Shown here in pieces: positions 2,900 to 10,440 of a DNA stretch of 38,733 nt. Source of the stretch: a virus (taxonomy: Duplodnaviria; Heunggongvirae; Uroviricota; Caudoviricetes); the IMG/VR virus record IMGVR_UViG_2698536454_000017. The stretch is one strand, 5' to 3'. A program made the position numbers and the translations under genes. Each line of letters starts with the position of its first letter. The stretch's first letter is position 1. The notes beneath the pieces were generated by a model. The model was not told where the DNA came from. It ran no database searches and saw only the letters and a program-made list of their open reading frames with translations.

Positions 2900-4200
2900 G
2901 CATTCCTTCGCGGTCGCCATTATGGCGATACCAGAGAGCTTTCTGCGTGTACATGCGTCTCTGTAACTTGCTCTCCTTCACTGTGGTTGCAAGTGACATG
3001 CATATCTCCTTCGTTACCGATTAATTCTTTCATCTGACGAATGAATTCTTTGTCTGACCAGTTATCTTTGACATCCTCCACGCCCTAAAGGGCGTGGATT
3101 CCTCCTTCGAGACGGCGATGTCCCGCCGCGAGAATGTTCTTTGCCGCGTTTACGTCGCGGTCGTGGAGTTCACCACATTCCACGCAGATCCATTCTCTTA
3201 TTCCAAGGCCTACCCTACCCTTCGGACTACTGCAGCTAATAGCTCCGCAGCACGAGCAAGTCTGGGTGGTGTACGCTTCATCTACGACCTCAAAAACCAC
3301 ACTCCGCGCAATCGCTTTATACTGAATCTGATTTTTTAGCTGACACCAGCCGGCGTCGTAGATACTTTTTGCCAAATTTGTTTTTGATAACTTTTTACTG
3401 CTTACGTCGCCTACAAAAATAGCGGCGTATTTATTAACCAGCGCCGTAGAAAACTTATGGTGTGCATCTTTACGGCGATTTTTGATTTTTGCGTGGATAG
3501 CTCTAACACGTTTTTTATTATGGGCACGTTGAGCAATTTTTAATTTGCCTTCTAATTCACGATACCAACGTTTAGCAGGAAGTTTTTCACCATCCGAAGT
3601 GGTGGCAATGTCTTTCAGACCAAGATCGATACCCACGTCGGCAGTGCCTTTAGTTGGTTCGCATTCGTATTCAACTGCAACATTGAAATACCAGCGACCG
3701 CGCGCATCTTCTGCAAAGTTACCAGCACGGAATTTAAAGCCATTTAATCCATAGCTATCCCACACTTTGAAATAGTGCCCGGCAAACTTGATGCAGCCGT
3801 TTACCCATTTCACTTGAGCACCTTTGAACGGAACCCAACCAAGACTACGCCCAGCACCGCCACTTTTACGCCAGCGCAGCTTACTGCGTTTAAACTGTTT
3901 ACGCGCTTTAGCGTGATGTTTTGAGATTTCCTGACAAGTAGCTGCTTGTATGTGGTATCCGCGCTCCTTTTGAATACCAGCAATGCGTTTATCTACGTCA
4001 AATTCAGTTAACCAAACTCTTTGTTTTGGTCCGTATTCGCTGACAGTGCTGTATTCAGTCGCAGTCATTTCATTGATAAAGTTAAAAACTTGGTTCACTT
4101 CAAAGGCCATCTGACGCAACAAGGCGGCGTGGCGGTCTTTGACGCGTACCTGCAATGTTTTAGTCTGAATAGCCATTTACTTGCTCCCCTTATTGGTAAA
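2900..4200 (-). mobile_element. IS200/IS605-family insertion element carrying tnpB only (IS1341-like); ends approximate
   Basis: Intact tnpB with no Y1 HUH transposase nearby; perfect hairpin at tnpB stop; located in intergenic position upstream of erf; exact left and right ends not determinable without comparison. Confidence 0.5.
3085..4176 (-). CDS. tnpB: TnpB (IS605 OrfB-family RuvC-like RNA-guided endonuclease), 363 aa
   Basis: Motifs GIDLGLKDIATTSDGEKL (RuvC-I), TTQTCSCCG...CVECG zinc finger, HDRDVNAAKNIL (RuvC-III); GGGGAG SD 7 nt before ATG 4176. Confidence 0.85.
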   Translation of the reverse strand: MAIQTKTLQVRVKDRHAALLRQMAFEVNQVFNFINEMTATEYSTVSEYGPKQRVWLTEFDVDKRIAGIQKERGYHIQAATCQEISKHHAKARKQFKRSKLRWRKSGGAGRSLGWVPFKGAQVKWVNGCIKFAGHYFKVWDSYGLNGFKFRAGNFAEDARGRWYFNVAVEYECEPTKGTADVGIDLGLKDIATTSDGEKLPAKRWYRELEGKLKIAQRAHNKKRVRAIHAKIKNRRKDAHHKFSTALVNKYAAIFVGDVSSKKLSKTNLAKSIYDAGWCQLKNQIQYKAIARSVVFEVVDEAYTTQTCSCCGAISCSSPKGRVGLGIREWICVECGELHDRDVNAAKNILAAGHRRLEGGIHAL

Positions 4201-6536: not shown

Positions 6537-7253
6537 TCAAACCAGCCTTAGTTTTGTCTCAATTGCAACGCCTATAATCTTGCAGTTTCCATTGATTGGC
6601 ACGAGAGGCCATGCAGGATTAAGTCCCTTGAGGTATTTATTTCCGCCGTCGATTATCAGCTTCTTGAATGTTGCTTCGTTAGAGTCAGAAAGTTTTGCTA
6701 TGACCAAGCTGCCGTTGATCGCCTCCCTTCCGGTATCGAAAAGAACGAATGTTCCCTCTGGAATGCTTAACCCAACCGGTGCCGTCATTGAATCACCTTC
6801 CACTTTAAGCCAGAACGCATTACCTTGAATATGCGCGTCAGACTCAAGCCAAACATCTATGTCTTTAATGGTGTATGGTTCGCATGCTTCACACCACGAG
6901 CCAGCCTGGATACTGCTTAACACCGGATACCTCTTTCCTGCTCTGTATTCCCCTGCATACCTTACGTTGGCATCGCTCTTAAGGCTTTCTGCCTGTTCTG
7001 CAACCTTGGCAGCAATTGACTGGCTAAAATCAGCAATTGAGACTTGCAACAATCGTGCAAAACCAGATGCAACCTCAACGTTTAGCGCATTTCTGCCATT
7101 AAGATAATGCCCTACCGCTCCTTGGGTGATACCCAGTTCATCAGCGATTGAGTATTGGGTTATTCCCAATTCTTTCTTTTTTGACTCATACAAAGCCTTA
7201 AGCCGCTTAGCGTCTTCCAGCTGTTCTGTCGTCAGTGATTTTTTATTTTCCAT
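6537..7253 (-). CDS. cI: CI-type prophage repressor (HTH + S24/LexA-like autocleavage domain), 238 aa
   Basis: Strong resemblance to lambda CI (LTTEQLEDAKRLKALYESKKKELG..., FWLKVEGDSMTAP..., FKKLIIDGG); no SD before ATG 7253, consistent with a leaderless PRM transcript. Confidence 0.9.
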   Translation of the reverse strand: MENKKSLTTEQLEDAKRLKALYESKKKELGITQYSIADELGITQGAVGHYLNGRNALNVEVASGFARLLQVSIADFSQSIAAKVAEQAESLKSDANVRYAGEYRAGKRYPVLSSIQAGSWCEACEPYTIKDIDVWLESDAHIQGNAFWLKVEGDSMTAPVGLSIPEGTFVLFDTGREAINGSLVIAKLSDSNEATFKKLIIDGGNKYLKGLNPAWPLVPINGNCKIIGVAIETKLRLV

Positions 7254-7288: not shown

Positions 7289-7328
7289 AATACCCTGAGT
7301 ATTGATTGCTTTGAATACCTGTAGTATT
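7289..7328. promoter_or_regulatory. OR operator sites (two clear 15-bp palindromes AATAC-N5-GTATT)
   Basis: 7289-7303 AATACcctgaGTATT; 7314-7328 AATACctgtaGTATT; same half-sites as OL. Confidence 0.5.
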
Positions 7329-7330
7329 CT
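7302..7330 (+). promoter_or_regulatory. PR-like promoter (-35 TTGATT 7302-7307, -10 TATTCT 7325-7330)
   Basis: 17-bp spacing; overlaps both OR sites; about 30 nt upstream of cro SD. Confidence 0.45.
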
Positions 7331-7359
7331 TTGTTCATGGTTAATAACGGAGAGTGCAT

Positions 7360-7554
7360 ATGATTCGAATGACACTTGCCGATTACGCCAAAATCCATGG
7401 ACAGGCTAAAGCAGCCAGTGACTTTGGTGTAATCCAGTGCGCTATCAGCAAGGCCATTCTGGCAGGCCGTAACATCATGGTTACGGTAAAGCCTGATGGC
7501 AGTGTGATTGGAGAGGAAGTTCGTCCTTTCCCAAGCAACAAGAAAAACAAATAG
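7360..7554 (+). CDS. cro: Cro repressor (64 aa)
   Basis: [24 protein letters not shown]...[10 protein letters not shown] resembles lambda Cro; GGAG SD 7 nt before ATG 7360 (track start 7354 is GTG). Confidence 0.8.
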
Positions 7555-7560
7555 TAACAC

Positions 7561-7606
7561 CGCTCTTTAACAGTCATGGTCCTCATTCCCGCCGAAATGC
7601 GGGAAT
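7561..7606 (+). promoter_or_regulatory. nutR (boxA CGCTCTTTAACA + boxB hairpin)
   Basis: boxA 7561-7572 matches recalled lambdoid boxA consensus; boxB ATTCCCGC-CGAAAT-GCGGGAAT at 7585-7606. Confidence 0.6.
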
Positions 7607-7662
7607 ACAACGCGCATAAGTTGATGCGCATAACTTCTTATTAGTTAAGGAAATACTTACAT

Positions 7663-7941
7663 ATGCAACTTACAAGTACTCGCAAGAAAGCGAATGCAAT
7701 TACAAGCAACATCCTGAATCGAATTGCTGTACGTGGCCAGCGAAAGGTTGCTGACGCGTTAGGAATTAATGAATCGCAAATTTCGCGATGGAAAGACAGC
7801 TTCATCCCAAAAATGGGAATGCTTCTGGCTGTTCTTGAATGGGGTGTTGAAGACGAGGAGTTGGCGGAACTGGCTAAGAAAGTAGCCAGAATGCTGACAA
7901 AAGAAAAAGCCCCGAAGAACGGCAAATTCTTCGAGGCCTGA
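7663..7941 (+). CDS. cII: CII transcriptional activator (92 aa)
   Basis: [29 protein letters not shown]...[10 protein letters not shown] closely resembles lambda CII; upstream TTAAGGAAATACTTACATATG matches recalled lambda cII ribosome-binding region. Confidence 0.85.
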
Positions 7942-7975
7942 TGTAGAAAGACTGGATCAATCCACAGGAGTAATT

Positions 7976-8122
7976 ATGACAAAACAACTCAGTCCTTACC
8001 AGGACAAAATTCACAAACACATACTACGTGATCGCTTCCTGTCCAGCTTCAAGCAGCCTGGTCGATTCCGGGCTGAGTTGGAAAAAGTGAAGCTGATGCA
8101 GAAGGAGAAAGGTCATGAGTAA
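7976..8122 (+). CDS. small hypothetical protein (48 aa) between cII and replication gene
   Basis: ATG 7976 with AGGAG SD; hand-translated open frame [15 protein letters not shown]...; stop overlaps start of the replication gene. Confidence 0.35.
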
Positions 8123-9014
8123 CATATCTAATCTAGCCGAAGCCAGAGAGGCCAGAAGGCTACAACAACCGCATCAAAGCAGCGGTAAGGGGTATGCCTT
8201 GCTGCACCGTAAAATTATGGATGTGCCGTTTTACAAGGACGCAGAAGCTGCGCATCTGTGGGTTCACTTAATCCTCAAAGCAAAGCATACGCCTGAGTAT
8301 GTAATGACTGACGCAGGAGAAATTCTGGTAGGCAGAGGGAAGCTACTTGGCGGTAGAAACTCTCTGGCGTTTGAAACAGGACTCAAACCAGATCGCGTTC
8401 AGTACCTGCTTAGAAAGTTCAAAAAACTCGGCATGATTGACTGGGTTTCACACGGTAAATTCTCAGTTTTCTCGGTAGAGAAATATGACGATTATCAGTC
8501 AAATTTTGTACCAGCAGATTACCAGCAAATTACCACCTCAAAGCCAGCAATACCAATGCCTGCAAGCAATACTGTACCAGCAGATTACCAGCAAATTACC
8601 ACAGATAAAGAATATAATAATATTATCTCTAATACTGACGTATTAGAGAGTACCGCAGCAGACAAAAAGTCTGACAAGAAAAAACCTTCCGTTAGCTGTC
8701 AGGATGTTGTCGATGCTTACCACGAAATCCTTCCTGAAGCGCCAAGAATCCGCGCACTGAATGACAAGCGTAAAAACCAGATCCGAACGTTCTGGCGCAA
8801 AGCCGGAGTGATAACCCGCCAGCTTGACGGGCATGGGTTCACGATGCAGGACTGGAGAAATTATTTGAGCTACGTAGGCGAAAATTGCCGATGGATGTTC
8901 GAAGAGCGCCCAAACCATCAACGCGGAACCGTCTGGCACAAAAAGGGATTTGATTTCCTGCTTAACGATAATACCTACCTGAAAGTTCGTGAGGGTGAAC
9001 ACGATGACCGATAA
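8115..9014 (+). CDS. replication initiator (lambda O / P22 gene 18 functional analogue), 299 aa
   Basis: Position between cII and helicase; GAAGGAG SD; internal iteron-like direct repeats as in lambda O/ori. Confidence 0.65.
8507..8650. repeat. candidate origin of replication: two 30-bp direct repeats (8507-8536, 8573-8602) followed by an AT-rich stretch
   Basis: Exact repeat TGTACCAGCAGATTACCAGCAAATTACCAC twice, 66 bp apart, each with internal ATTACCA sub-repeats; AT-rich 8603-8650. Confidence 0.45.
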
Positions 9015-10440
9015 TTTTTATGCGCCGCCCCATAGCATCGAGGCAGAGCAGGCGGTGATTGGTGGATTGCTTCTGGATGATGACAGCAGTGAGCGCGTCC
9101 AGAAAGTTCTGGCGATGCTGAAGCCTGATTCATTTTACAGCCGGCCACACAAAATCCTTTTCGAAGAAATAACCATAATGCACCGGGAGCAAAAGCCAGT
9201 AGATGGCCTGACGCTTTTCGATGAACTGGAGCGTAAATCGTTAACGGAGTCTGTTGGCGGTTTTGCTTATATCGCTGAGATCGCAAAGAACACGCCAAGC
9301 GCAGCAAACATCGTTGCCTATGCAATGCAGGTTCGTGAAACCGCAATGGAACGCTACGCCATCAACCGCATGACTGAAGCGACGGAATTGCTCTATTCCC
9401 GCAACGGAATGACTGCAACGCAGAAGTACGAAGCTATTCAGGCGATTTTCACGCAACTGACAGACCATGCAAAAACCGGATCGCGTCGCGGCCTTCGCTC
9501 ATTTGGTGAGGTCATGGAAGACTGGGTTAGCGACCTTGAGAAGCGATTTGACCCGTCAGGCGAACAACGAGGAATGAGCACAGGGATCCCATCGCTGGAC
9601 AGGATGCTGTCACCGAAAGGTCTGGTGAAAGGCTCTTTGTTTGTCATTGGCGCTCGCCCTAAGATGGGGAAAACGACGCTATACAGCCAGATGGCAATCA
9701 ACTGCGCAGTGCATGAGAAAAAGCCCGCTCTGATGTTCAGCCTTGAAATGCCAGGTGACCAGATACTGGAAAAACTGGTAGGGCAAAAGTCAGGTGTTAA
9801 CCCCAATATTTTTTACCTTCTGGCGACAAATGACGCTGATGACGGCTATCAGGGTGATTACGATGGTGACTTCAACAGGGCGATCGAAACAGCCAATCGC
9901 TTGAGTGAAATCGACCTGCTTTACATCGACGACACGCCGGGATTATCTCTGGCTCAAATCGTCAGCGAAAGCCGTCGAATCAAGCGAGAAAAAGGATGTG
10001 TTGGCATGATTCTGGTCGATTACCTGACACTAATGACCGCTGAGAAGGCCGATCGCAACGACCTTGCTTACGGCATGATCACCAAAGGACTGAAGAACCT
10101 TGCCAAAGAGCTTGATTGCGTTGTTGTGCTTCTGACACAGCTTAACCGCGCACTGGAAAGCCGAACCAATAAACGCCCATTACCAAGTGACTCACGAGAT
10201 ACAGGGCAGATTGAACAGGATTGCGATTATTGGGTGGGGATCCATCGTGAAGGCGCTTTTGATGACAGCGTTCCTCCTGGTGAAACCGAACTAATCCTTC
10301 GCCTCAATCGTCATGGCAATACCGGCACGGTGTATTGCATTCAGGCAAATGGCGCTATTTATGACACAGACCAACAGTCTGCTGAAATGCGCCGCCGTGA
10401 ACGCGAGGAACCGCAGTCCAAGAAGAAAGGAGGATTCTGA
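9004..10440 (+). CDS. DnaB-family replicative DNA helicase (P22 gene 12-like)
   Basis: Walker A GARPKMGKTT, DnaB-like N-terminus HSIEAEQAVIGGLL; ATG 9004 overlaps upstream stop. Confidence 0.85.
   Translation: MTDNFYAPPHSIEAEQAVIGGLLLDDDSSERVQKVLAMLKPDSFYSRPHKILFEEITIMHREQKPVDGLTLFDELERKSLTESVGGFAYIAEIAKNTPSAANIVAYAMQVRETAMERYAINRMTEATELLYSRNGMTATQKYEAIQAIFTQLTDHAKTGSRRGLRSFGEVMEDWVSDLEKRFDPSGEQRGMSTGIPSLDRMLSPKGLVKGSLFVIGARPKMGKTTLYSQMAINCAVHEKKPALMFSLEMPGDQILEKLVGQKSGVNPNIFYLLATNDADDGYQGDYDGDFNRAIETANRLSEIDLLYIDDTPGLSLAQIVSESRRIKREKGCVGMILVDYLTLMTAEKADRNDLAYGMITKGLKNLAKELDCVVVLLTQLNRALESRTNKRPLPSDSRDTGQIEQDCDYWVGIHREGAFDDSVPPGETELILRLNRHGNTGTVYCIQANGAIYDTDQQSAEMRRREREEPQSKKKGGF

Follow-up and report, generated by a model that had tools for sequence, protein, structure and literature searches.

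The iterons of the bacteriophage lambda origin are 18 bp in length, have hyphenated dyad symmetry, and are bound by two O molecules each (PMC6022878), and lambda-type Shiga toxin (Stx) phages carry either four or six of them (PMC7466680). Phage replication drives Shiga toxin production, and detailed work on Stx phage origins used this lambda-type O protein and origin. The HK022-type initiator is a second, unrelated type, encoded in a module that is very common and was found on thousands of E. coli prophage contigs, including those of the Stx phages VT2-Sakai, Stx1, and Stx2-86. In phage L, six 11-bp repeats were described in 2021 as the likely origin (PMC8022706), and the phage L record (MW013503) contains a putative rep_origin. 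The Sf6 record (AF547987) contains a rep_origin annotated as a [quoted passage not shown] and the VT2-Sakai record (AP000422) contains two misc_binding features, “ori iteron 1” and “ori iteron 2,” with “O protein” as the bound moiety, which correspond exactly to positions 8507 to 8536 and 8573 to 8602 of the DNA analyzed here. The origin reading is therefore not new: it is already in public annotation for VT2-Sakai, Sf6, and phage L, in each case as a prediction. No binding, unwinding, or replication assay for an HK022-type origin was found in the searchable literature, with the HK022, HK620, and Sf6 genome papers lying outside this search.

The window (the whole 38,733-nt stretch of DNA that was analyzed, IMG/VR record IMGVR_UViG_2698536454_000017) contained a lambdoid early-right operon of the classical type around the repeats, based on open reading frames (ORFs), Pfam and NCBIfam matches, and comparison with annotated records. 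The following genes were located:

6537 to 7253, minus strand: cI-like repressor
7354 to 7554: cro
7663 to 7941: cII
7976 to 8122, plus strand: orf48 (Pfam DUF2740), kept directly upstream of O in the replication module
8115 to 9014, plus strand: O-like replication initiator gene, 299 amino acids (aa)
9004 to 10440, plus strand: phage DnaB-family replicative helicase gene (P/gp12-like; Pfam DnaB and DnaB_C), overlapping the end of O

The gene order orf48 (DUF2740), O, DnaB-family helicase was that of the HK022/phage L-type module. The helicase start at 9004 was taken from the AP000422 annotation, and the gene matched TIGR03600 (phage_DnaB) in NCBIfam with 581 bits; its product would be the partner of the C-terminal domain of O. 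The end of orf48 overlapped the O start by 8 nt, and orf48 preceded the O-like genes of both initiator families. The corresponding PHROG (1913) carries the label “tail protein,” which has been copied into several RefSeq records and looks wrong because of the position of the gene.

Other features were observed in this region. A strong terminator-like hairpin (14-bp stem plus T tail) was present on the minus strand at 7907 to 7939, within the 3′ end of cII, with a conserved motif, ACTGGATCAAT, downstream of it (7950 to 7985); the hairpin and motif are consistent with an antisense RNA of the oop type known from lambda and P22. An Rfam scan of positions 7300 to 9300 (E values up to 1) returned no match at the origin, and its sole subthreshold match, to ctRNA_p42d (18.8 bits), overlapped the oop-like terminator. 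An antisense ORF within O (8643 to 9002, minus strand, 119 aa), listed as hypothetical protein “ORF b66” in AP005153, is probably a spurious call.

The 299-aa gene was 99.9% identical to the mEp235 gene for “DNA replication protein O” and 98 to 99.7% identical to the O genes of HK022, VT2-Sakai, Stx2-converting phage 86, and CP-1639. Amino acid identity was 98% with HK022 O and 66% with the proteins of phages L (gp18) and Sf6 (gp43). The initiator was assigned to PHROG 345 (“replication initiation O-like”; E = 5.6e-88). Searches of Pfam and NCBIfam returned no family for it, only a subthreshold match to DUF7376 and no match to Phage_rep_O or a Rep family; BLASTP detected no similarity to lambda O (E = 4.7), and a profile search of PDB sequences detected no solved structure. 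An AlphaFold2 model, built from a 40-sequence alignment obtained through a divergent-homolog search, was of moderate quality overall (mean pLDDT, 69.6; pTM, 0.39). The model contained a predicted winged-helix N domain (approximately aa 26 to 128; pLDDT, 78 to 93), with matches to winged-helix folds that were generic, and a predicted helical C domain (aa 192 to 299; pLDDT, 73 to 91). The linker between them (aa 130 to 191; pLDDT, approximately 30) was predicted to be disordered and coincided exactly with the stretch of the gene that holds the putative origin.

A preliminary description of this locus had proposed a candidate origin from two exact 30-bp repeats 66 bp apart, each containing ATTACCA sub-repeats and followed by an AT-rich stretch, all within the initiator coding sequence, and each of these features was recovered. 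The 30-nt sequence TGTACCAGCAGATTACCAGCAAATTACCAC was found without mismatch at 8507 to 8536 and 8573 to 8602 (start to start, 66 bp), with two ATTACCA sub-repeats per copy, and both copies lay within ORF 8115 to 9014, where they encode one duplicated 10-residue peptide. This was the longest exact direct repeat of the 38.7-kb window (the runner-up was 16 nt), with a chance expectation for repeats of at least 30 nt of approximately 7e-10. The 13-mer CCAGCARATTACC occurred exactly four times, always at the repeat site, and the observed match total was not reached by any shuffle of the window. The alignments indicate that the functional repeat unit is not 30 bp but 11 bp, with an invariant CCA core, and that six such units form two triplets, the 30-mer being one well-preserved triplet. 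The elements of the locus were as follows:

8508 to 8540, plus strand: iteron triplet A, with 11-bp units GTACCAGCAGA, TTACCAGCAAA, and TTACCACCTCA and CCA cores at 8511, 8522, and 8533
8541 to 8573, plus strand: spacer of 33 bp between the triplets, kept in length and free to diverge in sequence
8574 to 8606, plus strand: iteron triplet B, with units GTACCAGCAGA, TTACCAGCAAA, and TTACCACAGAT, 66 bp (6 × 11) downstream of triplet A
8603 to 8625: AT-rich tract AGATAAAGAATATAATAATATTA, 9% GC over 23 bp
8626 to 8635 and 8640 to 8649: perfect palindrome TCTCTAATAC-tgac-GTATTAGAGA, with 10-bp arms and a 4-nt center, absent from the preliminary description

All six units are in helical phase, since the triplet starts are 66 bp apart. 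The 11-bp units had no internal dyad symmetry or self-complementarity, and the iteron region showed no excess single-strand structure (z = +1.07). The 40-nt segment starting at 8605 tied for the lowest GC content of the whole window (17.5% versus 47.9% overall), and GC content this low was found in 0.03% of 40-nt segments. The AT-rich tract at 8603 to 8625 would serve as the DNA-unwinding element.

The preliminary description had made its reading depend on conservation of the repeats as DNA, and they were conserved in every homolog examined. A first comparison covered six diverged homologs with 43 to 98% amino acid identity (HK022, phage L, Sf6, the Klebsiella phages Chronis and ST101-KPC2phi6.1, and the Cronobacter phage ENT47670). 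In each of them, three 11-bp units were followed, 66 bp downstream from start to start, by three more, at a corresponding position in the gene and ahead of an AT-rich tract and a palindrome. After a further 113 loci from bacterial genomes and IMG/VR were added, 120 of 123 sequences had a KYD[DE][YF]Q motif followed by two triplets with a 33-bp spacer between them, an AT-rich tract, and a palindrome, and an equivalent of the AT-rich tract was present in every homolog examined. CCA occurred at the six in-phase offsets in 100% of 31 spacer-diverse sequences and at no other offset in more than 35%. A search for degenerate in-phase units found CCA at spacer offset 63 in only 35% of the diverse sequences, and the spacer is therefore no conserved part of the array.

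Among 47 unique window-type sequences, triplets A and B had a mean pairwise diversity at codon position 3 of 0.058 and 0.008, respectively, whereas the values for the spacer and the N-domain coding sequence were 0.197 and 0.204, such that iteron synonymous sites were 4 to 25 times less variable than the spacer and neighboring codons. Pairs of all types with 75 to 90% N-domain identity had 95% nucleotide identity in the iterons versus 57% in the spacer, a contrast that is not explicable by linkage, since the two alternate within 100 bp. As 11 is not a multiple of 3, the unit is translated in three frames per triplet (VPAD, YQQ, and ITT), and a peptide repeat therefore cannot account for the 11-bp period; residues P133, Q137, P155, and Q159, invariant in the protein alignment, correspond to the CCA core in two frames. 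Selection, as read from these alignments, acts on the repeat DNA rather than on the peptide.

The 66-bp unit of triplet plus spacer was naturally polymorphic, with one, two, three, or four copies. Two copies were present in the great majority of sequences, including clusters seen on at least 1,000 contigs. Three copies were found in two loci (L091 and L094) and in 26 protein clusters of 321 aa (P0002 to P0027), and four copies were found in a 343-aa cluster (P0001), with exact tandem DNA copies in L124 (positions 3395 to 3620). One prophage (L098; gene length, 831 nt) had a single copy, and thus two triplets may not be strictly required, or this prophage may be defective.

Iteron sequences fell into the classes kTACCAGC (window and HK022), TGTCCAACG (L and Sf6), TGTCCAGCC (Chronis), GTGCCAACA (KPC2phi6.1), AATCCAA (Ewingella and Biostraticola prophages), and, further, TTACCAACA, and every class was paired with a single N-domain cluster. 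Iteron distance was correlated with N-domain distance at a rho of 0.85, versus 0.37 for the C domain and 0.35 for the helicase (Mantel test, P = 0.001 each). The N-domain correlation is partly expected as a product of physical linkage, the iterons abutting the N-domain coding sequence, and more weight is placed on the synonymous-site and spacer contrasts because adjacency alone gives part of it. Mixed cores within one triplet (GTGCCAACAGA, TTACCAACAAA, and GTGCCAACGCA) were observed in Yersinia and Rouxiella prophages (L017, L019, L021, L022, and L035); the three bases 5′ of CCA therefore appear to be loosely specified, with CCA[AG]C as the main determinant.

The C domain of Sf6 was 100% identical to that of the window, with a different N domain and different iterons (TGTCCAACG), and locus L110 had the same iterons as the window with an N domain of 82% and a C domain of 50% identity. 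DNA identity between the window and Sf6 rose from approximately 50 to 60% to 97 to 100% at approximately 8620, and identity to L110 and L011 dropped at approximately 8611 to 8641. These breakpoints mark the module as a mosaic whose parts meet at the AT-rich tract/palindrome. The VT2-Sakai sequence was approximately 50% identical to the window across cI, cro, and cII and 100% identical rightward from approximately 7950 to 7990; in the records compared, the iterons do not track the immunity region. A mosaic joint between immunity region and replication module was thus observed at approximately 7950 to 7990.

Several records had unexpected host labels. An enterobacterial-type O gene with Sf6-type iterons was found on a 799-kb contig labeled Chryseobacterium sp. 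18061, and a second such gene was found on a 501-nt contig labeled Catenulispora yoronensis (together, the L016/L039 pair). MW057783, named Campylobacter phage CJLB-4, carries the lambda O gene with 100% identity. All three records are probably mislabeled or contaminated.

Conservation as DNA, low synonymous variation, covariation with the initiator N domain, and a lambda-like order of elements thus support the candidate origin within the initiator gene. On this comparative evidence, the repeats very probably constitute the functional origin of the HK022/mEp235/VT2-Sakai-type lambdoid module, bound by the N-terminal domain of O. Beyond the assignment itself, a mechanism may be proposed by analogy with lambda. 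Each 11-bp unit would be bound by one winged-helix N-terminal domain of O, and, as the units are without dyad symmetry, successive domains would be placed head to tail. An O-some-like nucleoprotein complex would form on one face of the DNA and destabilize the adjoining AT-rich tract (8603 to 8625), and the DnaB-type helicase that the phage itself encodes just downstream would be recruited to the opened strands by the C-terminal domain of O. The palindrome would act as DNA; it might, for example, extrude as a hairpin or form a fork-like junction at the bubble edge. The phased 11-bp triplets would imply a head-to-tail monomer array, unlike the dimer-per-iteron O-some of lambda.

The palindrome was conserved in structure. 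All 120 of 120 loci had a perfect 9- to 10-bp stem and a 4-nt center at a fixed offset, with 18 distinct arm sequences and with TGAC (66 loci), TAAC (33), and TAAA (9) among the centers. When 26 distinct versions were aligned, 98.1% of cells were paired, two-sided changes were found at 10 of 10 pairs, and the 260 pair cells included 65 double Watson-Crick changes and one G-U pair; this covariation was unmatched by any shuffle or slid register. Single-stranded DNA folding was equal on both strands (−8.6 and −8.4 kcal/mol; z of approximately −4.5). The near absence of G-U pairs argues for a DNA palindrome or a both-strand structure rather than a one-strand RNA helix. Arm sequence went with the part of the mosaic that encodes the C domain (rho = 0.74), yet one and the same arm was shared by C domains with an identity of only 48%, so that conservation seems to concern structure and not sequence.

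Palindromes were also observed right after the AT-rich tract in other O genes, in a survey covering six genes only of the lambda and P22/HK97 types (L123 and L125 to L129): GAGAATTC-tgrc-GAATCCTC in lambda, PhiR30_1, SEN34, and HK225, CCCCC-taaa-GGGGG in P22, and CCCCC-taac-GGGGG in HK97. The resemblance of their centers to TGAC, TAAC, and TAAA hints at a shared element that is independent of the initiator. It is possible, though we hold this only tentatively, that the structure-conserved palindrome (T-R-A-M center) is a third, initiator-independent element of lambdoid origins that places helicase loading or priming at the bubble edge through an extruded hairpin or cruciform. It might further belong to the transient structures sensed at phage origins by defense systems such as Lamassu. 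No mention of the covarying palindrome or of the polymorphism of one to four triplets was found in the annotations and papers accessible. The covarying palindrome may be the sole part of the locus that is undescribed and is the one lead possibly worth further work.

A leftward intrinsic terminator, or an RNA hairpin regulating O translation or mRNA stability, would remove the palindrome from the origin altogether. A consensus scan did call a minus-strand terminator-like site with a 10-bp stem and the tail TAATATTATT, and a terminator on the minus strand is annotated there in the phage L record as well. This reading was rated lower because the stems are AT-rich (2 to 3 GC pairs), the tail has no clean U-run, and a promoter scan of positions 7900 to 9100 found no sigma-70-like site on either strand, which also means that there was no evidence of an internal promoter at the origin. 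The single G-U pair against 65 double Watson-Crick changes in 260 cells, the lack of an Rfam family match, and the palindrome at the same position in the lambda origin argue in the same direction, and a terminator or regulatory hairpin is considered unlikely.

The palindrome and AT-rich tract could also persist mainly as a recombination “boundary sequence” between the N-domain/iteron and C-domain/helicase halves of the module. The mosaic joints at approximately 8610 to 8640 relative to Sf6, L110, and L011 are consistent with this, as are the joints marked in the lambda record at 39157 and 39165, at the border of AT-rich tract and palindrome, and the “boundary sequences” that the Sf6 record annotates elsewhere in the region. 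However, a joint needs shared sequence and not self-complementarity, and all 18 arm sequences were perfect palindromes at a fixed offset. As the main reason for conservation, a boundary role is quite improbable, and it would be compatible with origin function and thus no true alternative to it.

For the repeats themselves, binding by a protein other than O (for example, CI, Cro, or CII, terminase at a pac site, or DnaA or another host factor) was considered, given that in-gene direct repeats are pac sites in some P22-like phages. The same iterons, however, lay beside unrelated cI, cro, and cII genes in VT2-Sakai, the module occurred across virion types (HK022, Stx phages, and P22-like phages), and iteron type went with the N domain of O (rho = 0.85) rather than with the helicase. 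DnaA boxes with at most one mismatch were at chance level in the window (38 versus 34.5 expected), with none near the iterons, and host DnaA involvement is therefore not indicated. Recognition by such a protein is very improbable. Least credible of all is a mere peptide duplication (a 22-codon tandem) tolerated in a flexible linker around functionless DNA, since, even with one duplicated 10-residue peptide, a predicted disordered linker, and a 66-bp unit that expands and contracts to one, three, or four copies in natural variants, it leaves unexplained the 11-bp period read in three frames per triplet, the 4- to 25-fold lower variability of iteron synonymous sites, the invariant P and Q residues at the CCA core in two frames, and the diverged homologs that keep the geometry and CCA with other peptides (CPTDVQRMSN and VPTECQQSAN).

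For the favored reading of the repeats as the O-bound origin, the comparative data provide a precise testable map consisting of six CCA-core units, an unwinding tract, and a palindrome. The natural variants with one to four triplets and the several specificity classes of iteron and N domain provide swappable material.

Among known systems, the locus did not fit the iteron replicons of plasmids (RepA/Rep_3), which have iterons of 17 to 22 bp plus adjacent DnaA boxes; no Rep family was matched here, and the period was 11 bp. No small plasmid with the module as its replicon was found in PLSDB, where the sole match was one 50-kb phage-like record, a result that counts against the origin reading. 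The low-affinity DnaA boxes of E. coli oriC are short asymmetric sites 2 bp apart, with an 11-bp period and the same orientation, and such arrays permit a head-to-tail oligomer on one helix face beside the unwinding element. This likeness is an analogy only, as DnaA is an AAA+ protein and the initiator is a small winged-helix protein, and no DnaA box was present at the window locus.

The DnaD-like or replisome-organizer initiators of phages of Gram-positive bacteria, such as SPP1 G38P and the staphylococcal phage DnaD-like helicase loader, may be distantly related at the protein level. The N-terminal region of the initiator (aa 20 to 190, with matches reaching aa 230) matched PHROG families labeled DnaD-like helicase loader with E values of 5e-21 to 6e-8, and tblastn matched its N-terminal region to staphylococcal and lactobacillus phage proteins (approximately 26% identity over the N domain, with an unrelated C domain). 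SPP1 oriL likewise lies within the gene of its own organizer.

The lambda origin, like that of the window, is located in the initiator gene between the parts encoding the N and C domains, with iterons first, then an AT-rich tract, and then a palindrome whose center is 4 nt long. In NC_001416, four annotated 18-bp iterons at 39034 to 39118 are followed by an A-rich tract and then by GTCAGAGAATTC-tggc-GAATCCTCTGAC at 39162 to 39189 (positions 563 to 590 of L123), and the recombination joints marked in the lambda record at the AT-rich/palindrome border are equivalent to the mosaic joint of the window. The differences concern the repeat unit, the initiator, and the helicase. Lambda-type iterons are approximately 18 to 19 bp with dyad symmetry, whereas those of the window have a length of 11 bp, lack symmetry, and form two triplets in phase; the window initiator has neither a Phage_rep_O match nor BLASTP similarity to lambda O; and lambda P loads the host DnaB, whereas the window module encodes its own DnaB-type helicase. 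The lambda-like arrangement proposed in the preliminary description therefore held, in the comparison with NC_001416, for the order of elements and the site within the gene; the repeat unit, however, is 11 bp rather than 30 bp, lacks the dyad symmetry of lambda iterons, and lies in the gene of an initiator that is no sequence relative of lambda O. The variation in triplet copy number parallels the four versus six iterons of lambda-type Stx phages.

The closest systems were the predicted in-gene origins of HK022, VT2-Sakai, Sf6, HK620, and phage L. The six 11-bp repeats of phage L are split into two groups at mid-gene, as are those of the window at 8508 to 8540 and 8574 to 8606. The iteron core of L and Sf6 (TGTCCAACG) differs from the kTACCAGC of the window, a difference that matches their diverged N domains. 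In gene family, 30-mers, and orf48 and helicase neighbors, the window locus agreed with this group, with no essential difference.
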